From: an uncultured Phycisphaerales bacterium
GTDB taxonomy: Bacteria > Planctomycetota > Phycisphaerae > Phycisphaerales > SM1A02
DNA: 17,010 nucleotides
Assembly: GCA_938084645.1 (NCBI GenBank)
Contig: CALKEP010000069.1
Coordinates: forward strand, 1 to 17,010
Direction of reading: 5' to 3'
The notes below the pieces were generated by a model, which searched no databases, was not told where the DNA came from, and saw nothing but the letters and a program-made list of their open reading frames with translations. Positions 369 through 12,195 of this stretch are shown piece after piece; the stretch's first letter is position 1, and each line of letters opens with the position of its first letter. A program made the position numbers and the translations under genes.

Positions 369-1031
369 TCAGCGTCGACGTCGTCGCGCGCCGACCACGG
401 CGATCGCCGCAAGGACGAGCGGGCCGGGGCCCGGAATGGCCTGGTTGTACCCCTGGACGAACGCATCTCCGACATCGGCGCCGGTGAGGTCGGTGTCGGT
501 GAGGCCGAGGTCCAGAAGGATCGTCGCGAAGTTCTGGGTGATCAGGAGATCCCCCATGACGTCGAAGGTCTGCTCGAGCGGCGACGCGTCGGTGATGCCG
601 ACGGCGAACAACGCACCGAGACCCGTGCCATCGAAGAACGTATCCGAGACCGTGAAGGCCTCGAGCCCTGAGTCGTAGGCGATGTCGAAGTTGCCGAGCG
701 TGATCGATTCGTTGAACGTGATCGTTCCGCGATGGGCGATCGTCCCCGAGAACGAACCGAAGAAATCATCGGTGTCGTACATGAAGTCACTGCCGGCGGC
801 ACCCGCGTACGGCGAGGTGATCGCGAACGCGACCGAATCGGGTCCGAGGTTGCCCGGCGTGATCACGCCCCCGCTCACACCCGTGAGTTCGAGGTCGGTG
901 ACCGAAGCGATGAGCTCGAGGTCGAGGAGAACGCTGGTCTGCCCTCCGACGATCCCAACGAACTCGGCGGACGCGATGCCACTGAGGCTCAACGCTGCAA
1001 TGACAGCGCCTGAAGCGGTCTTGAACTGCAT
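369..1031 (-). CDS. Exported acidic, beta-rich protein with PEP-CTERM-like (IPGPG) C-terminal sorting signal, 220 aa
   Basis: Start moved to ATG 1031 (MQFKTASGAVIAALSLSGIASA, a Sec signal) with AAGGG upstream. The C-terminus AIPGPGPLVLAAIAVVGARRRRR* is a Pro motif + hydrophobic helix + Arg cluster, the exosortase-target architecture. Confidence 0.85.
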   Translation of the reverse strand: MQFKTASGAVIAALSLSGIASAEFVGIVGGQTSVLLDLELIASVTDLELTGVSGGVITPGNLGPDSVAFAITSPYAGAAGSDFMYDTDDFFGSFSGTIAHRGTITFNESITLGNFDIAYDSGLEAFTVSDTFFDGTGLGALFAVGITDASPLEQTFDVMGDLLITQNFATILLDLGLTDTDLTGADVGDAFVQGYNQAIPGPGPLVLAAIAVVGARRRRR

Positions 1032-1218
1032 ATTTGAGGACCCTTTCCCGTTTGTCCTTTTCCACAAATGCCAGCTTCCCTACGGCTGGACGAATGAACT
1101 ATGCCACGTTTTTCGCCCGAAGCAACGCAAGGACGCATCATTTCCCATAAAAATCGTGATTGCCGCCAATGAGCAACTCCGTGGCATCCCCGGTCGAGCA
1201 CCATCGAATCCCGTTCCC
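1032..1218. promoter_or_regulatory. Divergent intergenic/promoter region
   Basis: Non-coding gap between divergent genes, visibly more AT-rich than its flanks (e.g. TTTCCCATAAAAAT). No exact promoter boxes assigned. Confidence 0.45.
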
Positions 1219-1650
1219 ATGGCCCCGACTCGTTCTCAAAGCCCCCGATGGATGTCCCGATGGCTGATCGCTGCCGGGATCTACAACCTCATCTGGGGCC
1301 TTCCAATCATCCTGGCACCCGATCTGCCCTTCGAGATTCTGGGAATGCCCCCTCTGGAAGACCCGGGAAGGGCGATCTGGCAATGCCTCGGCATGGTGAT
1401 CGGGGTGTACGGCATCGGCTACCTGGCGGCCGCGAGCGATCCACTCCGCCATTGGCCCATCGTCCTGGTCGGACTGCTTGGCAAGGTGTTCGGCCCGATC
1501 GGCTTCCTCTGGACGGCCTCTCAGGGCGGGATCGAGTGGATCTTCGGCCTGAACATCCTCACCAACGACCTGATCTGGTGGGTTCCGTTCGGGATGATTC
1601 TCCTCGCAGCACGCCGATCCGCGACCGAACGAGGGCCGAATCCGGCCTGA
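1219..1650 (+). CDS. Small integral membrane protein (~4 TM helices, 143 aa), uncharacterised family often annotated as or fused to AhpC/TSA-type redoxins
   Basis: 3' part of ORF 682..1650; the upstream part is only antisense to 369..1031. It has hydrophobic segments and the motifs AGIYNLIWG, WQCLGMVIGVYGIGY, DPLRHWPIVLVGLLGK and TNDLIWWVPF. The family link is recalled, not searched. Confidence 0.8.
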   Translation: MAPTRSQSPRWMSRWLIAAGIYNLIWGLPIILAPDLPFEILGMPPLEDPGRAIWQCLGMVIGVYGIGYLAAASDPLRHWPIVLVGLLGKVFGPIGFLWTASQGGIEWIFGLNILTNDLIWWVPFGMILLAARRSATERGPNPA

Positions 1651-1655
1651 TCGCG

Positions 1656-2273
1656 TCAGGGGGCCAGCCAGCCGGCCTCGACGACGCCGCTTTCGTTCCA
1701 CCGCCAGGCGGCGCGAAGATGCCCATCGTGGTGCAGTTCGAGGCGCTCCAGACGGTCGATCCGCGTTCGCACGAGGGCGAAATTGACCCGGCCCGCCTCG
1801 CTTGCCGCGCTGTCCGGCCGGGATGCATGAAGATCGTCCGGGAGATTGGGATGCCACTCCTCGAGATCTCCCGAGGGAGGATGCGGCGCGAGATAGCAGC
1901 GACGACTCGACAGGGTCGTTCTGGCCCAGCCCGCATCCGCGACGTCGTCGTCGGCATGCACCGTGGTGATGCCCGATGCCCGGACCTGCGTCTTGCTCGT
2001 TCGCTCGTAGAACGCCCACGCAAGTCGGCCCGACGCCTCGATCTCCCGGATCTTCGGGCTCCGTCGGTCGGTGTGGAAGGTGAGCGTCCTCGCCTCGGGA
2101 TCCACCGAACGGAGCACCACCGTCCGGGCCTCGGGCCGTCCATCGACGCCGATCGAGGCGATGACGGGAAGGTGCCACTCGTGCCGACCGTTCGTGACGG
2201 CCTCCGTCAGGCCCCGCCAGGCGGCAGCGAGTTGATCAGCCAGGCTGGGACGTTGGATCTGCGGTTCGGTCAT
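1656..2273 (-). CDS. Pyridoxamine 5'-phosphate oxidase-like FMN-binding protein (Alr4036-like), ~205 aa
   Basis: Motifs GRPEARTVVLR, FHTDRRSPK, QVRASG and a C-terminal WLAP are typical of the split-barrel PNPOx-like family. Start placed at ATG 2273. Confidence 0.85.
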   Translation of the reverse strand: MTEPQIQRPSLADQLAAAWRGLTEAVTNGRHEWHLPVIASIGVDGRPEARTVVLRSVDPEARTLTFHTDRRSPKIREIEASGRLAWAFYERTSKTQVRASGITTVHADDDVADAGWARTTLSSRRCYLAPHPPSGDLEEWHPNLPDDLHASRPDSAASEAGRVNFALVRTRIDRLERLELHHDGHLRAAWRWNESGVVEAGWLAP

Positions 2274-2408
2274 GCCCGCATTCTCACACGTCGGCCCGCC
2301 CGTGTCCTCCGCCACCTGCTGAAACTCACCCCCGATCTGGACGAATTGAACGACGGTCGCCGTCATCCCGGCGAGGACATCGAGTGAATCCCGAACCGGA
2401 GCGAGCCC

Positions 2409-3167
2409 TTGAACGATCAGGTCATCCCGCCTTCATCAACCGTCGGACAGCGGATCCTCGTCATCGGCGCCGGAGGCGGCATCGGGCGGTCGCTCGTCGC
2501 CCGCCTGGTCACCCGCGGGGTCTCCGTGGTCGGCGCCGCCCGGGACGTCGACGCACTCGGGTCCGTCCCGGGACTCGAATCCCGACATCGGCTCGACGCC
2601 CGCGATCCCGACGCGACGGTCTCGCTCGTCGGGTCCATCCATGAGACGACACCGTTGAATGGAATCGTGAACCTCGCGGGATGCATCTCCCTGAAGCCCG
2701 CCCACATGGTCACCACCGACGAGTGGAACGAGACGATCGCGACCAAGCTCACGACGGCCTTCTCCTGCGTCAAGGCGGCCGGCCGGCACCTGAAGAACGG
2801 CGGAAGCGTCGTGCTCGTCTCGACCGTCGCCGCCGGGACCGGGCTCTCGAATCACGAGGCGATCGCCGCGGCAGGGGCCGGCGTGGAAGGCCTTGCGCGG
2901 GCGGCCGCCGCGACCTACGCGGCACGCGGACTCCGGTTCAACGTCGTCGCACCGGGCCTCGTCGATACACCACTCGCTTCCAAGATCACGGGCAGCGAGC
3001 GAGCCCTGGAGCATTCGCGGAAGATGCACCCCCTCGGACGGATCGGCGTCGCGGAGGACGTGGCCCCCGCCATCGACTGGCTTCTTTCCTCGGATGCGAG
3101 CTGGATCACCGGCCAGACGGTTGGAATCGACGGAGGCCTCGGGTCGCTTCGCGTGCCGGCCTCATGA
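2409..3167 (+). CDS. Short-chain dehydrogenase/reductase, atypical (no YxxxK), 252 aa
   Basis: Rossmann motif GAGGGIG plus VNLAG, LVST, NVVAPGLVDT, HPLGRIG and WITGQTVGIDGG. TTG start with GGAG 7 nt upstream; the stop overlaps the next ATG (ATGA). Confidence 0.9.
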   Translation: MNDQVIPPSSTVGQRILVIGAGGGIGRSLVARLVTRGVSVVGAARDVDALGSVPGLESRHRLDARDPDATVSLVGSIHETTPLNGIVNLAGCISLKPAHMVTTDEWNETIATKLTTAFSCVKAAGRHLKNGGSVVLVSTVAAGTGLSNHEAIAAAGAGVEGLARAAAATYAARGLRFNVVAPGLVDTPLASKITGSERALEHSRKMHPLGRIGVAEDVAPAIDWLLSSDASWITGQTVGIDGGLGSLRVPAS

Positions 3168-5596
3168 ACCTCGAGGAGATCATCCACCGGCTGCCGCCGC
3201 ATCTCGAAGAGCGGGTGCACCGCTTCGCAGACCACGGCCGCGGAGGTGATCTCGTCGTCTGCTGGATTCACCACGCCAATCGGATCGATGAGAACCCGCT
3301 GCTCGAGGTCGCCGCGGAAGCGGCCCGGGCGTTCGAACTTCCGCTCGTGGTCCATGCCGGTTTCGGCGGACGCCACCCGCACGCGAACGATCGGCACACG
3401 CTCTTCATGCTGGAAGGGCTCCGCGAAACGCAGGCCGCCCTGGGGGAACATGGCGTCCGGATGTCCGTGACCCCGCCGCCGCCGGGCACGGGGCCTTCGG
3501 GACTCCGGCGTCTCGCGGCTCGAGCGCGACTGCTGCTGACGGAAGACCAGCCGGTTCGCCCGTGGCCTCGATGGACCGCGGCCATCGCGAGCGCGGTCCC
3601 CGGCGAAGTCGCGCTGGTCGACACCGCCTGCATCGCTCCTGCCCGCTCGATCGCCGGGAACCATGATCGCGCCTTCCGATTCCGGTCGGCGGCGACGAGG
3701 GCCTGGAAGGAACGACTTCACCTGGACTGGCCGAAGGCATCCCTCGAAGCACCGGAGGCGGGGATCGAGGATCTTCCGGATGACACCATCGAGCTCGCGA
3801 ACGTCGATCTCGGCGACCTCGTCGGAGGCTGGGACATCGACCATGCCGTCGGTCCCGTTCCGGACATGCCCGGCGGGATGGCCGCCGCCGATGCGCGATG
3901 GAACACCTTCCTCGAGCATGGATTGAACCGCTACCACCGCCGGAGGAACGACGCCGTCGACGACGACGGCGTGAGCGGGCTCTCTCCATACCTGCACCAC
4001 GGAATGATCTCGCCGATGCGGATCGCCCGCGACGCCCACCGCAGCGGCGGCGAGGGTGGCGAGAAGTTCCTCGACGAGCTGCTCGTCTGGCGCGAACTCG
4101 CCCATCACTTCTGCCTGAATCACGCCGGCCACGACTCTCTCGATGCGTTGCCGGCCTGGGCGCGGAAGACCCTCGAGCATCACCGCCGGGACGAACGTCC
4201 GCACCGCCGGTCCTGGGAGACGCTGGCGCGAGGACGAACCGGTGATCGACTCTGGGATCTCGCCCAGGAGTCGCTGAAGCGAAGAGGCAGACTGCACAAC
4301 AACGTGCGAATGACCTGGGGCAAGATGCTGCTCGAGTGGACGTCATCGCCGGAGGAGGCGCTCGACCGCCTCCTGGATCTGAACGATCGATATGCACTCG
4401 ACGGTTCCGACGCCAACTCCATCGGCGGCCTGCTCTGGTGCCTCGGCCTCTTCGACCGGGCCTTCGAGCCGGAACGACCGATCGGAGGGACGATCCGGGC
4501 GCGGGACTCGAGGGATCACGCGAAGCGAATCGACCTCGACCGGTACCGATCGGTGGTCCATGGAGGCATCCGTCGCCAGTCGGCACTCGTCATCGGCGCC
4601 GGCATCGCCGGCTCGCAGGCGGCCCGGATCCTGCACGACCACGGCCACGCCGTCACCGTCATCGACAAGAGCCGAGGTCCCGGTGGTCGGTCCAGCAGTC
4701 GCCGCGGCGAAGGCACGCGTCACGACCACGGTTGCCAGGTGCTTCGACTGCGAGGCGCCGCGCTCCGACGATCGGCCGAAAGCTGGGAGGAGGATGGCGT
4801 CATCGCGCGATGGAACCCGCGAGTCCTCCTGGATGGCTCGGTGAGTCCGCGCCCTCGGGAGCCTTGGTTCGTCGGAACCCCGGGGATGAACGAACTCGTC
4901 CGACACCTGCAGCGCGATCTCGACGTCGACTTCGGCCGACGGGCGACCCGCCTGGAGAGGACCGCCGCGGGTTGGACCGCGTTCGACGAGGAAGACATGA
5001 AAATCGGCACGGGCGACCGCGTCATCATCGCCGTGCCGGCCCCGCAGGCGGTCAGCCTCCTTCGCACCGCCGGCATCGACACCGATCCGCTCGACGCGGT
5101 CCGTTTCGATCCGACCTGGACGCTGCTCCTCGACGGCATCGACCGGGATCCCGGTTTCGACGTCGCGGTCGATCCAAGCCCCGAGATCCGCTGGATGGCC
5201 CGCGAAGCCTCTCGTCCCGATCGCGCCGAGGCGGGCTGCTGGACCGTCAACGCCACTCCCGAATGGTCGCGAGCGAACCTTGAAGCGGATCCGGACGTCG
5301 TCGAAACGCGACTCCGGATGGCCGCCGCCGCGGTGCTCGGCGTTCCGATCGATCGCCCCGGCAAGGTTCATCGGTGGCGGTACGGACTCGTCGAATCACC
5401 CCTGGGCGAACCCATCCACGTCGACCCGTCGAGTGGTGCGATCGCCTGCGGCGACTGGTGCCTCGGCGGACGCATCGAGCACGCGTTCCAGAGCGGTGCG
5501 GCGGCCGCGGGCAGCCTGCTTCGAGATCCGACGTTCGCCTCACCCCGATCGAACGACGCCCCCGAGCACGGCCTGTTCGCGGAAATCTCGGAATGA
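3164..5596 (+). CDS. Fusion protein: class II CPD photolyase-like domain + renalase-like (COG3380) FAD oxidoreductase, 810 aa
   Basis: Start at ATG 3164 (ATGA overlap with the SDR). The N-part has [51 protein letters not shown] and [13 protein letters not shown], all class II-type. The C-part (from ~4570) has [38 protein letters not shown] and [17 protein letters not shown]. One uninterrupted frame. Confidence 0.88.
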
Positions 5597-5976
5597 GTCG
5601 CTCGCCACTCCCACGACGAACCTGCGAATGCTGCGGACGGACCTTCGCCTGGCGTCGAAAATGGGCACGCGACTGGGAGAACGTCCGGTACTGCTCCGAT
5701 CGCTGCCGTCGCTCGGGAACGGGCCCGTCCGATCACCGACTCGAGACGCGCATCCTCGAACGACTCAACGCCCGTTCAAGCGGAAGCACGGCATGTCCAT
5801 CGGAGATCGCACGAGCCGTCGATCCCGCCGCCTGGCGGGAACACCTGGAACCCGTTCGACGCGCCGCTCGACGGCTCGTCGCGTCCGGCCGGCTCGAGAT
5901 TCTGCAGAACGGACGCCCCGTCGATCCGGACACCGCGCGGGGCCCGATCCGACTCCGACTCGTCCGCGATCGATGA
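5593..5976 (+). CDS. DUF2256 (Cys zinc-ribbon-like) + DUF3253 fusion protein, 127 aa
   Basis: ATG 5593 overlaps the upstream stop. N-part [34 protein letters not shown] fits DUF2256; C-part [11 protein letters not shown]...[15 protein letters not shown]...ILQNG.PVDP...RGPIRLR fits DUF3253. Confidence 0.88.
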
Positions 5977-6073
5977 ATCCGACCGAAGGCAGGATTCGAA
6001 GTTCGGTTGAGAACGCCATCGATGGGGTGGCGGGCCGCGCGACATCGCGATGACATCGAACGGAGATCCAGAC

Positions 6074-6706
6074 ATGATCCACGACGCCCGAACCTGCCGC
6101 GAGATCGATTCCACCACGGACCGCGAGGAAAGACACACCCCCGCTTTCGATCAACCCAGGATCGAGGCCGCCGTCCGGGAGATCCTCCACGCGATCGGTG
6201 AGGATCCGGACCGCGAAGGGCTGATGGACACGCCGCAGCGCGTCGCGAGGGCGTACGGCGAGATGTTCGGGGGACTCGACGAATCCCCCGCCGCACACCT
6301 CGCCCGGCAGTTTCCGCAGGAGGGAAGTGACCCGGTGATGGTCACGGACATTCCCTTCACGAGCATGTGCGAGCACCACCTGCTCCCCTTCACCGGCGTC
6401 GCACACATCGCGTATCAGCCACAACACGGGCGGGTGGTCGGGCTCTCGAAGCTCGCCCGAACCGTCCAGATCCTCGCCCGGCGGCCGCAGCAGCAGGAGC
6501 GGCTCACCCAGCAGATCCGAGCGGCGATCGAGGAGCATCTCGACCCCGCCGGAGTCCTCGTCATGCTCGAAGCGACGCACTCCTGCATGCAGATCCGGGG
6601 GGCGAAGGCCCATGGCGCCGCCATGAAGACCCGCTCCGTCGGAGGCCGCTGGGAACGCGATGCCGCGACACGCCGCGAGATTCAGGAGATGATGGTCGGA
6701 AAGTGA
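6074..6706 (+). CDS. folE: GTP cyclohydrolase I (type IA)
   Basis: Motifs IGEDPDREGLMDTPQRVAR, SMCEHHLLPF, VVGLSKLAR, QERLT and HSCMQIRG with Zn ligands intact. ATG 6074 is preceded by GGAG; alternative ATG at 6050. Confidence 0.96.
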   Translation: MIHDARTCREIDSTTDREERHTPAFDQPRIEAAVREILHAIGEDPDREGLMDTPQRVARAYGEMFGGLDESPAAHLARQFPQEGSDPVMVTDIPFTSMCEHHLLPFTGVAHIAYQPQHGRVVGLSKLARTVQILARRPQQQERLTQQIRAAIEEHLDPAGVLVMLEATHSCMQIRGAKAHGAAMKTRSVGGRWERDAATRREIQEMMVGK

Positions 6707-6731
6707 TTCCGACCCTCTCTCCGGATCGAAC

Positions 6732-7997
6732 ATGTCCTCGGACGCCCCCATCCTGATCATCGGCGCCGGCCTCGCCGGTCTCGCCGCCGGACGCGAGCTC
6801 GACCGGCGGGGAGATCCCTTCCGCATCCTCGAAGCTTCGGCTCGGGTCGGTGGCCGCCTCGGTTCGACGGTCGTCGACGGCATCGTCTGCGACCTCGGTT
6901 TCCAGGTGTCGATGTCCAACTACCGCTCGCTCGAAGCACTGGTGCCTCGAACGTCGCTTCCCCGACGCCCGTTCATTCCGGGGGCGATCGTCTGGACGGG
7001 CACGGATCGGATCCGGGTGGTCGACCCGCGCCGCGCCCCGCTCGGCGCCTTCCAGGCGGTCTTCCGTGGGTTGGCGGGATGGCGGGACCTCCGAGCCGCG
7101 GCGCGGTGCCGCCGAGCCGCCGCCCGCGCGACCTCCGGTGTCGATCCGACCGGCACGGCCGATCGGTTCATCCGGGACGTGGGTTTCAGTGAACGGTTCC
7201 GCGAGTCCTTCCTCCGTCCGTTCTTCGGCGGGGTCTTTCTCGACGAATCGCTGTCGGTCTCGGCGGGGCGATTTCTCAGGACCCTGGATCGGTTCTCGAG
7301 CGGCAACGCGGAACTCCCACGCGGAGGCATGCAGGCGATCGCCGATGCGATGGCCGAACCGATCCTCGATCGGATCGATTTCGGTCGCAGCGTCACGGCC
7401 GTCGACGCGGACTCGGTGGTACTCGACGACGGCGAACGCCTCGAGGCCGGTGGTGTCATTCTCGCGGCGGATCAGGACGCCACGGACCGTCTCCTTGGTG
7501 ACGATCCCCACGTCGCTTCGGAGGGCGAGACCGCTTCACGCTGGTCTTCGACCGTCGCCGTTCACTTCGAGACACCCGAAGCGACGATCCGTGAACCGAT
7601 CATCGTCCTGAACGGAAGCGGAACCGGCGAGGTGAACCTCGTCGCCAGTTCGACCGCGGTGACCGCCGGCGTCGCACCGAAAGGTCGACACAGCCTCACC
7701 GTGAGCCTTCGACCGGGCGGGCCCACCGATCCCGATCAAGCCGGCCTCGAACGGATCGCCCGCGAGGCGGCTTCGATGCTCGACGTGGAAAGCCGGAACT
7801 GGCGACACCTCGCGACGACCGCGATCCGCCGGGCGCTTCCGGTCGGACCACCCCCCGCCTCACCACCACCGACGCCCGACCGAGTGGAGATCGCCGGCGA
7901 CTGGCTTGGCGAGCCGTCCATCGACGCCGCGGTGCGCAGCGGAATCGACGCCGTGAACCGCATGGCCGAATCAACACCCACGGGAATCCGATCATGA
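6732..7997 (+). CDS. FAD-dependent oxidoreductase, flavin amine oxidase/phytoene desaturase-like superfamily, 421 aa
   Basis: IIGAGLAGL, LEASARVGGRL, DLGFQV, FLRPFFGGVFLD, LPRGGMQAI and C-terminal AGDW...SIDAAVRSG. Substrate unknown. Confidence 0.88.
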   Translation: MSSDAPILIIGAGLAGLAAGRELDRRGDPFRILEASARVGGRLGSTVVDGIVCDLGFQVSMSNYRSLEALVPRTSLPRRPFIPGAIVWTGTDRIRVVDPRRAPLGAFQAVFRGLAGWRDLRAAARCRRAAARATSGVDPTGTADRFIRDVGFSERFRESFLRPFFGGVFLDESLSVSAGRFLRTLDRFSSGNAELPRGGMQAIADAMAEPILDRIDFGRSVTAVDADSVVLDDGERLEAGGVILAADQDATDRLLGDDPHVASEGETASRWSSTVAVHFETPEATIREPIIVLNGSGTGEVNLVASSTAVTAGVAPKGRHSLTVSLRPGGPTDPDQAGLERIAREAASMLDVESRNWRHLATTAIRRALPVGPPPASPPPTPDRVEIAGDWLGEPSIDAAVRSGIDAVNRMAESTPTGIRS

Positions 7998-9388
7998 CCT
8001 CGAGTCGACGGACCATCGCATGGCTTCGCGGCGATCTCCGCCTCGACGACAACCCCGCCCTGGCCGAGGCCCATGCACGGGGCACGGATGGATGCACCGC
8101 GGTGTATCTCCTCGACGACGCCTTCTGGTCGAAGCATCACTGGGGCCCGGCCCGACGCGGGATGAGCCTTCGGGCGGTCGCGGCCATGCGGCCGAGACTC
8201 GCCGACGCCGGGATCGATCTGCGCATCCTGACCACCGCCACGAGATCCGCGGAAGACGTGATCGCCGACGCCTGCCGCGCGTCCGGCGCGACCGAAGTCC
8301 ACGCGAACCGGGAGTTCGGCGTGAACGAACATCGTCGCGACGAGGTGGTCGCGAATCGACTCGCCGAGGCGAACGTCGATTTCCGCCGTCATCACGATCA
8401 GACCATCCTGCCGGTCGAAGAGATTCGCTCCGGCGCCGGGACCCCCTACACCGTCTTCACACCGTTCAAGAAGAAGTGGCTCAAGCTTCTCGAAACGTCG
8501 GGGGCTCCCGTCCCGATCGAACCCCCCGGGCCGCCGGTCTCACCGACGGCCGACGCACGCTTCGTCGATGAGATCGATCTCGATGCCGCGCTTCGCGACG
8601 TGCCCGAATCGGCGTTCGAGGCCGGCGAAGCAGAACCACGCCGACGGCTCGAGGCGTTTCTCGATGGCCCCGTGGAACGCTATCACGACGACCGCGACCC
8701 ACCGTCGCTCGACGGGACCAGCACGCTTTCCCCGTGGCTCGCCTGCGGCTCGATCTCCCCGCGACGGATTCTCCGGATGCTGACGGATCGCTTCGGAGAG
8801 GATCCAGCGTCCTGGCAGGAGGGACCGGCGACGTGGTTGAGCGAGTTGATCTGGCGCGAGTTCTACCGCCACGTGATGGACGGCATCCCCAAACTCTCCA
8901 TGGACCGGCCGCTCCACGGCTGGACCGACCGCGTCGAATGGCGGGATGACGAGGCCGGATTCACCGCATGGTGCGACGGACGAACCGGGATCGCGATCGT
9001 CGACGCCGGCATGCGACAGATGGCGGCGACGGGATGGATGCACAATCGCGTCCGCATGATCACCGCGACGTTTCTGGCGAAGCACCTCCTGATCGACTGG
9101 CGCCGAGGCGAGCGTTTCTTCATGCACCAGCTCGTCGACGGCGACTTTCCCAGCAACAACGGCGGCTGGCAGTGGGCCGCCTCGACCGGAACCGACGCCG
9201 CCCCCTACTTCCGGATCTTCAATCCCGATCGTCAGGCCGAACGCTTCGATCCCGAGGCGACCTACATCCGGCGATGGGTTCCGGAGTACGACGGCCCCGG
9301 ATCGATGAAGCCGATCGTCGACCTCAAGGCGGCGCGGGTCCGTGCGATCGAAACCTTCAAGTCCGCGAAGAACGCCGTGACGGCCTGA
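7994..9388 (+). CDS. phrB: Deoxyribodipyrimidine photolyase, class I CPD, 464 aa
   Basis: WLRGDLRLDDNPAL, YTVFTPFKK, GTSTLSPWL, WLSELIWREFYRH, GWMHNRVRMI and NNGGWQWAASTGTDAAPYFRIFNP closely follow E. coli PhrB. Trp-triad equivalents (RVEW, LIDW, GGWQW) are present. Confidence 0.95.
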   Translation: MTSSRRTIAWLRGDLRLDDNPALAEAHARGTDGCTAVYLLDDAFWSKHHWGPARRGMSLRAVAAMRPRLADAGIDLRILTTATRSAEDVIADACRASGATEVHANREFGVNEHRRDEVVANRLAEANVDFRRHHDQTILPVEEIRSGAGTPYTVFTPFKKKWLKLLETSGAPVPIEPPGPPVSPTADARFVDEIDLDAALRDVPESAFEAGEAEPRRRLEAFLDGPVERYHDDRDPPSLDGTSTLSPWLACGSISPRRILRMLTDRFGEDPASWQEGPATWLSELIWREFYRHVMDGIPKLSMDRPLHGWTDRVEWRDDEAGFTAWCDGRTGIAIVDAGMRQMAATGWMHNRVRMITATFLAKHLLIDWRRGERFFMHQLVDGDFPSNNGGWQWAASTGTDAAPYFRIFNPDRQAERFDPEATYIRRWVPEYDGPGSMKPIVDLKAARVRAIETFKSAKNAVTA

Positions 9389-9394
9389 GGAGCC

Positions 9395-11245
9395 TCAGAG
9401 ATCTCCGGTGACCTCGGGCACGAGCTGGAAGACCAGCACCCGATCGACCGCGGTCACCACCAGCCGCTCGCCCGACGAATCAAAACACGCGTTCGAGATC
9501 CATCGCTCGTCCGGCACGAGGGTGCGGATGAGGGCCCCGTCCGCTGACACGACGTGCACGCCCTTGCCAGTGAGCAGCACGGCGCTGTCGGAGGCCATCG
9601 CCATCCCGTCCGACCCGAGCGGGAAGAACATCCGACGCGGGCCGAGGGCGCCGCCGGGGCCGATGGCGAACTCGAAGGTCCGCCCGCCATCCAGATCGGC
9701 GACGTAGAGCCGGCTTCCGTCCGGTCGGCCGACGATGCCGTTGGGACGCTCGAAGCCGGTCGCCGCGATCTCACAGGTACCGTCGGGGTCGAGCCGGTGG
9801 ACGTCCGCCCGCAGCGGCTTCCGTCCGGACGCGAACCAGGGCCTCCGATAGAAGGGATCGGTGAACCAGATCCGTCCCGACGGCCCGACCCAGAGATCAT
9901 TGGGGCCGTTGAACGGACTCGTCCCGCCCGAGGCGAGGACTTCGACGCTCCCATCGTCATCCCACGCCACGAGTTCGTTCTCGGCTTCCGCGCATCCGAC
10001 GAGCCGGCCATCGGCGGCGACCGCCAGTCCGTTCGCTCGCCTTGCTTCGAACGGCATCACCGACACGTCCCCGTCGACGCCGATGCGGACGATCCGATCG
10101 CGTGGCTGATCCGTCACCAGCAGATCCCCCTCCGGAAGAAACACCGGGCCCTCCGAGAATTCGAATCCCTCGACCAGCACCGCCGCCGGACCGACCCGGG
10201 CCCACGCCGGATCGGCCGCGAGCGGAATTCGTCGGGTCCGTCCGACTTCGGTCCCGGATGGAATCTCGTGAAATCGCATCCATCCATCGATGGTGCCGTC
10301 CGCGAGTCGCATGGATCCGTTGAAACCGAGGACGCTCGCACAACTCGCGAGTGCGTCGGCATCGGCACCGGGCGACGCTCCACCCTGCACGAGCACCGTC
10401 ACCTCGCGTCGTGCCTCCAAGGGCCTGCCCGTCCGCGGGTCCAGAAGATGACTCAATCGCACGATCTCGCCATCCCGCTCCACTTCGAGAAACTGCTCGA
10501 CGTCACCACTGGTCGCGATCGCACCGTTCTCCAGCAGCACCACTTCGTCCTCGTCGCCCTCGACGGTCCGAATCCGCACTCGCCATCCGGCCGATCCGGG
10601 CGGCGGAAAGCCCGCGACGAGATCGCCACCGACGTCGACGAGGGCACGAACCAATCCTCGAGCCCGGAGCACCGCGAGCGCCGCGTCAGCCGCCATGCCC
10701 TTTCCGATCCCGCCGAAGTCGAGCCGAAGTCCCGCCGTTCGACAACGCAACGTGCCGGCTTCCCGATCGAACTCGATTTTCTCGATGCCGACCACGTCGT
10801 CGGCGAACTCGACACTCGCCCGAGATGGCGGAACGCCATCTCGACGAGCCGATCGCCAGAGCTGGGTGAGCGGACCGATCGTGGGATCGAACGCACCGCC
10901 ACTCCGTCGATTCCAGTGGATGGAACGCCGCAGGGCCTCGGCCAGATCGGGGGACACCCGGACCGTTTCGTCGACCCGTTCGACGAGCCGCATCGCCTCG
11001 CTCCGAGGTCGATAGTCACTCAGCACGTCCTCGATCTCGGCCATTCGCGCGAAGGCGGCCTTGGTCGCCGCGTATCCGGTCGCTTCGTCCGGCGCGTAGA
11101 CCTGGATGGTGGCGGGCGTGCCCATCACCACCCGACGATCGACCACCCGGACTTCGGGCCCGACGGCGGATGCCGCCGGGACGAACCATGGCGGGAGAAT
11201 CACGGCGGCGAGCATCGCGGCGGCGCGAACGATTTCGAAGTTCAT
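9395..11245 (-). CDS. apbE: Fusion: ApbE-family FAD:protein FMN transferase + SMP-30/gluconolactonase (SGL) beta-propeller, with signal peptide, 616 aa
   Basis: ATG 11245 overlaps the upstream TGA; signal peptide ends AASA. ApbE motifs: VMGT, GAFDPTIGPL, LDFGGIGKG, DVGGD, ATSGD, HLLDPRTG, ADALAS. SGL motifs from ~10190 down: FSEGPVF, ANGLA, FNGPNDL, IWFTDP, RPNGI, LYVAD, SDGMA. Confidence 0.88.
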   Translation of the reverse strand: MNFEIVRAAAMLAAVILPPWFVPAASAVGPEVRVVDRRVVMGTPATIQVYAPDEATGYAATKAAFARMAEIEDVLSDYRPRSEAMRLVERVDETVRVSPDLAEALRRSIHWNRRSGGAFDPTIGPLTQLWRSARRDGVPPSRASVEFADDVVGIEKIEFDREAGTLRCRTAGLRLDFGGIGKGMAADAALAVLRARGLVRALVDVGGDLVAGFPPPGSAGWRVRIRTVEGDEDEVVLLENGAIATSGDVEQFLEVERDGEIVRLSHLLDPRTGRPLEARREVTVLVQGGASPGADADALASCASVLGFNGSMRLADGTIDGWMRFHEIPSGTEVGRTRRIPLAADPAWARVGPAAVLVEGFEFSEGPVFLPEGDLLVTDQPRDRIVRIGVDGDVSVMPFEARRANGLAVAADGRLVGCAEAENELVAWDDDGSVEVLASGGTSPFNGPNDLWVGPSGRIWFTDPFYRRPWFASGRKPLRADVHRLDPDGTCEIAATGFERPNGIVGRPDGSRLYVADLDGGRTFEFAIGPGGALGPRRMFFPLGSDGMAMASDSAVLLTGKGVHVVSADGALIRTLVPDERWISNACFDSSGERLVVTAVDRVLVFQLVPEVTGDL

Positions 11246-12195
11246 GACCGGAATCGATCGCACTCTCGATACGCCTCGATGAGCCGGTCCACCCCGTCCT
11301 TTCCGCCGAGACTCAGTCCGTGTTCCATGCCCACGATTCCCTTGAATCCGCGGCGGTGGAGGTGACGGAAGACGTTGCGATAGTCGATCTCCCCGGTCGT
11401 CGGCTCGCGACGGCCGGGATTGTCACCGACCTGGAAGTAGGCGATCTCGCTCCACGCCTGGTCCATGTAGGGAATGAGATTCCCCTCGGTGATCTGCTGG
11501 TGGTAGAGATCGTTCAGGATCTTGCAGCTCGGACTGCCCACCGCTTCGCAGATCATGAACGCCTGTGGGATCTCGGTCAGGAACAACCCCGAGTGATCCC
11601 GGCGATTCAAGGGCTCGAGCACCATCACCAGATCGTGCGGCTCGAGAATCGCGGCACATCGCTTGAGGTTCTCGATCACGTTGGCCGTCTGAAAATCCCA
11701 CGAATCGGACAGGCCGTACCGGCCCGGGACCACGGTCATCCAACGCGCCCCGCACCGCTTGGCGATGTCGACCGCCTTCCTCATCTTCGATTCCAACCTG
11801 GCCGTCATGGCCGGATCGCGCTTGACGAAGGTCTCCGCACCGAAATCCCCCTCGGCCACGAACACGCCCATCTCGATGTCCAACCGACGCATCGCTTCCC
11901 CAAGCCGCTTCTGCTCCGCATCGGAACGCCCCGGCATCCCGTTGTCTTCCCATGCCCGGAATCCGTGATCGTGGGCGAACTCGAGCTGGTCCACCAGATC
12001 GTTCCCGCTCTTGGCGTTGAACATGCCGAAGTGCGGCGCGTATTTCAGATTGAATTCCGCCGCGGGTGGCACCGCGACATCGCCGACCGCGACCCCGGTC
12101 GCCAGTCCGGCCACCGTCGCCCCGCCCGCCGCGCCGAGAAAGGCCCGCCGTTCGATCCCGCCCGCTTCAGTCCCCGCTGAATCGATTCCGCTCAT
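11242..12195 (-). CDS. Tat-exported hydroxypyruvate isomerase (Hyi)-like TIM-barrel protein, 317 aa
   Basis: ATG 12195 with AAGGAG RBS; Tat signal ERRAFLGAAGG; motifs LEPLN, DLYHQQITEGNLI, QVGDNPGRREPTTGEIDY and GMEH. Confidence 0.9.
   Translation of the reverse strand: MSGIDSAGTEAGGIERRAFLGAAGGATVAGLATGVAVGDVAVPPAAEFNLKYAPHFGMFNAKSGNDLVDQLEFAHDHGFRAWEDNGMPGRSDAEQKRLGEAMRRLDIEMGVFVAEGDFGAETFVKRDPAMTARLESKMRKAVDIAKRCGARWMTVVPGRYGLSDSWDFQTANVIENLKRCAAILEPHDLVMVLEPLNRRDHSGLFLTEIPQAFMICEAVGSPSCKILNDLYHQQITEGNLIPYMDQAWSEIAYFQVGDNPGRREPTTGEIDYRNVFRHLHRRGFKGIVGMEHGLSLGGKDGVDRLIEAYRECDRFRS

Follow-up and report, generated by a model that had tools for sequence, protein, structure and literature searches.

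The window analyzed here, a stretch of 17,010 nucleotides from an uncultured Phycisphaerales bacterium (contig CALKEP010000069.1 of GenBank assembly GCA_938084645.1), carries a gene that joins a class II photolyase domain to a renalase-like oxidoreductase domain, and our data show that the open reading frame (ORF) is a genuine fusion of the two. Translation of 3164-5596 on the forward strand is free of stops and yields 810 amino acids (aa), and its start overlaps the stop of the upstream SDR gene (2409-3167) through an ATGA. The N-terminal part matched the TIGR00591 phr2 profile (285.5 bits, E 1e-84, residues 28-462; the curated cut-off of 550.05 was not reached) and the class II photolyase of Methanosarcina mazei (2xry, E 1.5e-55), whereas residues 475-787 matched Pseudomonas renalase over its full length (3kkj/4zcc, E 2-4e-50). 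An earlier account made without database searches (here, the sequence-only reading) had described just such an 810-aa two-domain protein, and these profile and structure-sequence matches confirm it, as do independent contigs. Indeed, the junction is spanned by contigs of two other studies (run X2, 2300-5705; run X8, 4421-8136) with 0 gaps and no indel listed. The stop or frameshift near 4560-4590 for which that account had left room is absent, as both contigs run through, and the sole substitution there (4571 C>A) replaces Arg470 with Ser. Together with the homolog searches below, these contigs rule out an artifactual fusion. The spacing between the columns of Y461 and V474 is 11-14 aa in 120/120 fused homologs. 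An upstream start at ATG 2681 (971 aa) was not favored, since it would overlap most of the SDR gene and the starts of homologs cluster near 3164. The features of the locus are collected in Table 1.

Table 1. Features of the window, with the fused gene and its parts listed first
Feature	Positions	Strand	Basis or remark
Fused gene, 810 aa: class II photolyase domain, renalase-like domain and clamp-motif tail	3164..5596	+	Translation, profile searches
Class II photolyase domain, residues ~10-463, HNN[VL]RMTW subfamily	3191..4552	+	Alignment with 2xry, subfamily alignment
Linker, 12 aa in the window protein	4547..4582	+	Alignment of 120 fused homologs
Renalase-like (COG3380-type) FAD domain, residues ~474-787	4583..5524	+	3kkj/4zcc match
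EHGLF, degenerate sliding-clamp-binding-like motif in the variable C-terminal tail	5564..5578	+	Family form QxxLF; archaeal QxxLxxW
SDR oxidoreductase, first gene of the run	2409..3167	+	Stop overlaps fused-gene start
DUF2256-DUF3253 fusion protein, directly 3' of the fused gene	5593..5976	+	Profile search
folE, GTP cyclohydrolase I	6050..6706	+	Profile search
Second flavin amine-oxidase-family protein, not renalase-type	6732..7997	+	Profile search
Class I-type cyclobutane pyrimidine dimer (CPD) photolyase phrB	7994..9388	+	NF007955, 436 bits, cut-off 506
Divergent PPOX-type FMN flavoprotein, syntenic in close relatives	1656..2366	-	Profile search

Both halves of the gene are under purifying selection, with ratios of nonsynonymous to synonymous substitution (dN/dS) for the two halves of 0.14/0.16 and 0.17/0.15 in comparisons of the window with L005 and L006. 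Metatranscriptome runs X15 and X17 contain only short contigs on the gene, and these show neither transcription nor light induction. A promoter scan gave 1 weak site vs 0.3 expected.

The photolyase half is assigned to class II (E 1e-84 for TIGR00591 vs 2.5e-11 for class I), and the profile and structure-sequence searches returned no (6-4) or FeS-BCP family signal in the window protein. Residues were mapped to M. mazei numbering through the 2xry alignment, and conservation was counted over 136 subfamily representatives. In the accessible part of PMC6126647, the lesion contacts are R164, R256, N257, E301, W305, M379, and W421, and the bubble plug consists of D428, R429, W431 (or Phe/His), and R441. 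The window protein keeps the pocket as R174, R261, N262, E305, W309, M383, and W425, and the plug as D431, R432, F434, and R445. Across the subfamily, the seven pocket positions are conserved in 129, 136, 124, 132, 130, 134, and 132 representatives, respectively, while D428, R429, and R441 are conserved in 134, 127, and 133, and Phe occupies position 431 in 112. The tryptophan triad (W364/W385/W392 in the window) is found in 130 (W360), 136 (W381), and 133 (W388) representatives. The flavin residues R382, N407, and D413 of the window correspond to R378, N403, and D409, which we take to serve in their class II photolyase roles; this set is conserved in 130-136 representatives (N403 in 134, D409 in 136). 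Thus, the kept triad, flavin Asn, and lesion-pocket Glu and Trp described from the sequence alone stand, and all of the motifs quoted with them (DRLW, MTW, LEW, LNDRY, DELLVW, DGSDA, FDRAF, and DHGCQVL) occur in the window protein. Since all residues of the CPD pocket, bubble plug, flavin site, and triad are kept, the photolyase half is likely to repair CPDs.

The same account had noted DGSDA and FDRAF in place of the usual DGRDP and HDRAW segments; these changes are mostly not marks of a new photolyase function. The family consensus at the supposedly diverged sites is DGxDP (P in 110/120), FDRPF, and, in the renalase half, DHGAQYF. DGSDA is the form that DGxDP takes in this lineage, and the accessible text of PMC6126647 gives Phe as one of the normal class II residues at the Trp431 position. 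On the family consensus and that source, we rejected loss of function as an explanation of DGSDA/FDRAF and dropped the Trp-to-Phe change at 431 as a mark of divergence. Loss of the antenna Asp (RDQR to xAxR) was likewise dropped as a subfamily trait, since many canonical planctomycete class II proteins share it. Fixed changes lie near the DNA face, where RYM reads RxR (R447 in 130/136) and H452 is present in 124/136; N414 is variable.

By its signature, HNN[VL]RMTW, the family is a distinct class II subfamily at the sequence level. A quick IQ-TREE analysis was run on a set that included 40 fused representatives sampled at random, archaeal members, and 22 canonical planctomycete class II proteins, with eukaryotic and M. 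mazei sequences left out. In this tree, the photolyase domains of the family split from the 22 canonical proteins on a long branch (SH-aLRT 100).

The subfamily also differs where the Trp electron chain leaves the protein. Y345, H356, K384, and E387 have been tied to the auxiliary donor and water cluster at the distal Trp of class II enzymes (PMC5885780, accessible part). Tyr at position 345 is found in 32/136 subfamily members vs 48/48 canonical proteins, and Glu at 387 in 21/136 vs 40/48; position 356 is Gly in 93/136 (His in 43/48 canonical) and position 384 is Ala in 97/136 (Lys in 47/48 canonical). Y380 is missing from 32/48 canonical proteins too. Over the set Y345/H356/D357/Y380/K384/E387, the window protein departs with R349, G360, T384, and M388 and keeps D361 and E391. 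Judging from these alignments, the exit of the Trp chain is remodeled in the subfamily while the triad stays, and this remodeling leaves room for an electron supply in cis.

In the renalase-like half, the flavin adenine dinucleotide (FAD) and renalase motifs GxGxxG, GGR, DHGxQ, HRW, GDW, and ExAxxSG are intact. The substrate site is a different matter: GAQYF reads GCQVL, and the positions of H232 and R280 of Pseudomonas renalase, which we presume to be substrate-site residues, hold N696 and L742. In the window's clade the former is His in 60% and Asn in 35%, and Leu at the latter is also common in stand-alone relatives. The variant DHGCQVL, pointed out in the sequence-only reading, is a real departure from the consensus DHGAQYF, but it is a fixed trait of the window's 20-protein clade: GCQVLR replaces GAQYFT in 20/20 (C, V, and R columns). 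Given dN/dS values of 0.14-0.17, the renalase half has changed under selection rather than through decay, and it may act on a substrate other than that of the studied enzyme. The general renalase reaction is described in the accessible part of PMC7660482. All 26 archaeal representatives (Marine Group II loci, L180-L249) have a strongly altered substrate site, and archaeal members have lost most of its motifs. Some shorter archaeal forms (~610-660 aa) retain only a decayed second domain.

Past the renalase domain, the tails of the family vary in length and sequence, and their ends carry a motif that is newly described here; it did not figure in the sequence-only reading. Bacterial beta-clamp-binding motifs follow the consensus QL[S/D]LF and PIP boxes Qxx[I/L]xxFF (PMC9690074 and bioRxiv 10.64898/2026.05.27.728225, both as far as accessible). 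We scored the last 15 aa of the 122 fully fused representatives (50% identity) and found QxxLF in 19 and LF in 32, compared with 0/118 for either in stand-alone renalase-like controls. The background was 1/2209 among ORFs of the window's own genome and 0/445 among neighboring ORFs. Shuffled tails gave means of 0.22 (QxxLF) and 5.1 (LF), and 0/2000 shuffles reached the observed counts, so the clamp motif is enriched over background in the exposed tails of the family. All 20 proteins of the window's clade have LF, and P0008 has QADLF. A tail of the QLDLF type is present in P0105. Among the 26 archaeal representatives, 16 carry Qxx[LIMF]xxW (e.g., QTDLSAW, QSNLSSW, QATLSNW, QSSLSDW, QTSLNEW, and QASIFDW), 5 carry QxxLF, and 5 neither; this PIP form occurs in 1/122 fused representatives. 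Control proteins gave comparable motifs: QTTLDTW stands at the end of a family-B DNA polymerase encoded in these archaeal loci, and in the window's own genome, whose DnaN gene lies at G000:C85:6115-7221, DnaE has QNMLF and MutS QLSLF, both with Gln. DinB of that genome has DPGLF immediately after its IMS_C domain, which we take to be a known clamp-motif site.

The motif follows the photolyase half, because it is kept when the renalase is lost and decays when the photolyase is deleted. Renalase-less P0168 and P0171 retain QATLF and QPATLF, and two genomes of the same genus as the window (G314 and G315) have lost the photolyase half through an in-place deletion but keep the renalase half (dN/dS 0.14), and there LF reads SF. 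Canonical stand-alone planctomycete class II photolyases have QxxLF in 6/54 and LF near the end in 13/54, above shuffles, and clamp tethering may accordingly be general among bacterial class II enzymes. The six canonical carriers of QxxLF lie at L097, L107, L140, L142, L146, and L149. On this evidence, members of the family quite probably bind the sliding clamp. Gln is one of the three positions that weigh most in clamp binding (bioRxiv 10.64898/2026.05.27.728225, accessible part), and binding by the window's own Gln-less copy is probably weak. The tails of the family suggest that the fused enzyme repairs UV damage while riding the clamp.

With the full protein as query, the best 120 matches were all fused (758-869 aa, 41-84% identical), in a search biased to fusions. 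With the photolyase half alone (matches of 256-816 aa only), a full renalase domain was present in 107 of the 120 best matches, a partial one in 8, and none in 5. Among 150 representatives found with that half alone at 50% identity, 122 were fully fused, 13 partly fused, 8 had a truncated photolyase, and 7 lacked a detectable renalase. All or part of the renalase domain is thus present in 135/150, and homologs are far from always being split. A GTDB scan gave at least 592 confirmed stretches, one of its patterns being able to match canonical class II genes as well. The 80 of these that were kept are titled Planctomycetota, Acidobacteriota, Gemmatimonadetes, alpha-, gamma-, and deltaproteobacteria, Rhodothermales, and Myxococcales. 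The sequence-only reading had thought similar fusions possible in other planctomycetes; the range proved far wider, taking in many bacterial phyla and Marine Group II archaea.

Within planctomycetes, occurrence is patchy: 118/301 Planctomycetota genomes have a class II-like match and ~7 of these belong to the fused subfamily, as judged by score and by the regions fetched. Among 9 genomes of the window's genus, 5 have the full fusion, 2 the renalase half only, and 2 no match; one of the latter has lost the entire SDR-fusion-DUF block. In the syntenic operon of G315 and G314 (L259-L262), what is left of the fusion is the renalase half, now a separate gene (P0197, P0198) that is under purifying selection. 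The nine renalase-less or decayed forms placed on a tree nest within the fused clade, and the fusion is therefore ancestral. In the IQ-TREE analysis, the archaeal members group together in a single clade inside the bacterial subfamily (SH-aLRT 99). Clusters of Thermoplasmatota were indicated by the Atlas, and a metagenome scan started from three candidate proteins returned 79 loci with 65 complete ORFs, 58 of them of archaeal type. Archaeal names (Poseidoniaceae/Poseidoniales/Euryarchaeota/Thermoplasmatota) stand on 5 clusters, and the remaining archaeal members were assigned by the tree. No fusion was found in viral contigs (15 pattern matches, none confirmed) or on plasmids (6 photolyase-only matches). 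The stretch itself recurs wholly or partly in 20 runs, and the 14 holding at least half of it are from marine, estuarine, or ballast water. Its source genome is 3.3 Mb and 97% complete, with its closest named homologs in Phycisphaerae/Planctomycetota. We also observed a 4593-aa protein (P0317) that contains 8 PF00875 stretches and was matched 17 times by the photolyase query; it is either a tandem array or an assembly or gene-calling artifact. A further copy (L093:2378-4231, G017) lacks ~300 internal photolyase residues in frame and keeps the renalase domain and a QGELF tail.

The fused gene lies in a run with the order SDR, fusion, DUF2256/DUF3253, folE, amine oxidase, and class I phrB. The sequence-only reading had placed a canonical phrB in the same operon, and the class I-type phrB at its end bears this out. 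The genome's other photolyase-family genes are this class I PhrB, a NewCRY-like gene, and an FeS-BCP/DPRP gene; no other renalase or class II gene was found among its called ORFs. A canonical class II gene coexists with the fusion in G212, G164, and G289. Class I and class II photolyases are said to be used exclusively (PMC7736829, accessible part). Among 76 GTDB loci outside the close clade, a light-cluster gene is nearby in 35 and another photolyase-family gene in 23. DUF2256 recurs near 16 of these 76, and the DUF3253 domain recurs near distant homologs too; we regard the DUF2256-DUF3253 protein as a candidate partner. Four of the 76 (L015, L039, L041, and L049) have a gene for an Fpg/Nei DNA glycosylase close to the fusion. 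From 28 matches to stand-alone renalase-like genes, 4 annotated plasmid regions were viewed, and in 3 of them the gene sits beside folE, SDR, DUF2256, photolyase, or RpoE-ChrR genes. In Pseudomonas, phrB, SDR, FAD-dependent oxidoreductase, cryB, and folE genes are light induced (PMC9758184, accessible part).

Elsewhere in the window, 9395-11263 (-) encodes a fusion of ApbE (FAD:protein FMN transferase) with an SMP-30/gluconolactonase domain, and this gene is syntenic in close relatives. A small membrane protein at 1165-1650 (+), with a weak MFS match only, is conserved beside the PPOX gene in close relatives. Tandem paralogous, secreted-looking proteins lie at 3-263 and 369-1067 (-); the complete one had no Pfam match and ends in IPGPGPLVLAAIAVVGARRRRR, which in our estimation resembles a PEP-CTERM sorting signal.

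Collectively, we lean, with modest confidence, toward a CPD photolyase tethered to the sliding clamp and joined to an independently working renalase-like oxidase of the same stress regulon. Given the match of its residues to the M. mazei enzyme, the photolyase FAD would be photoreduced through W392-W364-W385 to FADH-. The dimer would then flip into the W309/W425/M383/E305/N262 pocket and be split by photo-induced electron transfer. The linear motif in the tail would dock in the peptide pocket of the clamp, DnaN in bacteria and PCNA in archaea, so that the enzyme would act on newly replicated DNA or at dimer-stalled forks, beside the untethered class I PhrB. The renalase-like half would oxidize 1,2-/1,6-dihydro-NAD(P) or a related reduced substrate, possibly shifted in the window's clade, with its own FAD and O2. 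Such clean-up would belong to the same light/singlet-oxygen stress regulon, and the fusion would mainly secure joint expression. Several observations weigh against this scheme. The fusion, kept in 135/150 representatives with a narrow linker, exceeds what simple co-expression needs, and the three other photolyase-family genes of the genome leave the fused copy free to diverge. The photolyase domain scores far under the TIGR00591 cut-off, and all 26 archaeal representatives carry Phe at the lesion-stacking W305 position. In the tail, the window copy EHGLF has no Gln, 90/122 fused representatives have no LF, and kinship inflates all of the counts. The PIP form arose once on the tree, and the G314/G315 deletion is a single event.

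An unlikely alternative is a coupled two-flavin machine, in which the renalase domain docks over the Trp-chain exit. Dihydro-NAD(P) would charge the renalase FAD, and the reduced cofactor would either quench the W392 radical or pass electrons to the photolyase flavin without light, so that the enzyme stays in the FADH- state under oxygen. Such a machine would account for the swap of water-cluster and auxiliary-Tyr residues for small or variable ones beside a kept triad, for the narrow linker, and for an ancestral fusion. However, P0168 and P0171 persist without a renalase and with the same remodeled exit, the renalase half persists alone under selection in G314 and G315, Y380 is also missing from many canonical proteins while the window retains E391 and D361, and archaeal members have lost most renalase substrate-site motifs. 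In addition, renalase flavin is reoxidized by O2, and renalase substrates are scarce. Because the halves separate in nature and stand-alone renalases sit in light-stress clusters, independent activities are likelier than coupling; the coupled DNA and metabolite repair inferred in the sequence-only reading is weakened, as an obligate link, on the same grounds. We hold it improbable that the protein combines the two ideas as a clamp-riding photolyase with its own reductase; if true, metabolite repair and DNA photorepair would be connected, and a physiological electron donor for photolyase activation would be identified.

A specialized photolyase, acting on CPDs only in single-stranded gaps or at forks or on another photoproduct, is also rather doubtful. 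Coexistence with three further photolyase-family genes in the window's genome, and with canonical class II genes in three others, speaks for it, the more so as class I and II enzymes are described as exclusive (PMC7736829, accessible part), as do the clamp motif and the RxR, H452, and N414 changes near the DNA face. Nevertheless, the duplex bubble-plug residues D428, R429, and R441 are retained, position 431 is still aromatic, and no (6-4) or FeS-BCP signal was seen. A photoreceptor or light-gated oxidoreductase, whose photolyase-like domain would have given up DNA repair and act as a switch for the renalase domain, would fit the long branch, sub-cut-off score, redundancy, and direct fusion to an enzyme domain, but it is very improbable and the least likely reading, since conservation extends to every DNA- or lesion-contacting residue, Asn is the partner of N5, the tail motif tracks the clamp type of the host, and photolyase-only members persist.

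The fused kind of enzyme is real, widespread, and apparently unstudied. The architecture has been auto-annotated by JGI and clustered in the Atlas. We found neither a study of the fusion nor one that links photolyases to the clamp in the literature covered, which comprised main texts only, with subscription papers mostly outside it; the accessible parts of PMC7736829, PMC11237513, PMC10480650, and PMC6461757 do not mention the fusion. Nor did we find a photolyase named as a clamp partner there, the word "photolyase" occurring 0 times in the accessible main text of PMC9690074. Bacteria of sunlit water and Marine Group II archaea commonly carry the family, yet it is known through automatic annotation only. 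The usual view of photolyases is of free enzymes that locate dimers unaided. On transfer into marine archaea the motif changed from the beta-clamp to the PIP form, which points to photorepair coupled to replication. The clamp motif, present in 6/54 canonical planctomycete class II proteins, is possibly a general and overlooked feature. The family may thus offer a handle on two questions, namely, the role of bacterial renalase under light stress and the in vivo reductant of the photolyase Trp radical.

Compared with known systems, the window shares SDR, DUF2256, folE, and phrB genes with light/singlet-oxygen clusters under LitR or RpoE-ChrR, but it has no such regulator. Pseudomonas renalase (3KKJ/4ZCC), whose relatives lie in the same light-stress clusters, matches the second domain over its full length and shares its FAD motifs, whereas the window protein is fused and has GCQVLR, Asn at H232, and Leu at R280. 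The tails of the family fit the bacterial QxxLF and archaeal QxxLxxW clamp motifs, the window copy lacking the Gln. With M. mazei MmCPDII (2XRY/2XRZ), the photolyase half shares domain order, CPD pocket, bubble plug, the W381-W360-W388 triad, N403, and R378-D409. From canonical class II enzymes, the subfamily differs in reading HNN[VL]RMTW for H[NG]Y[LM]RM[LY]W and in its remodeled Y345/H356/K384/E387 exit, and the window protein is set apart by its fused renalase domain, its score under the TIGR00591 cut-off, and its separate clade.

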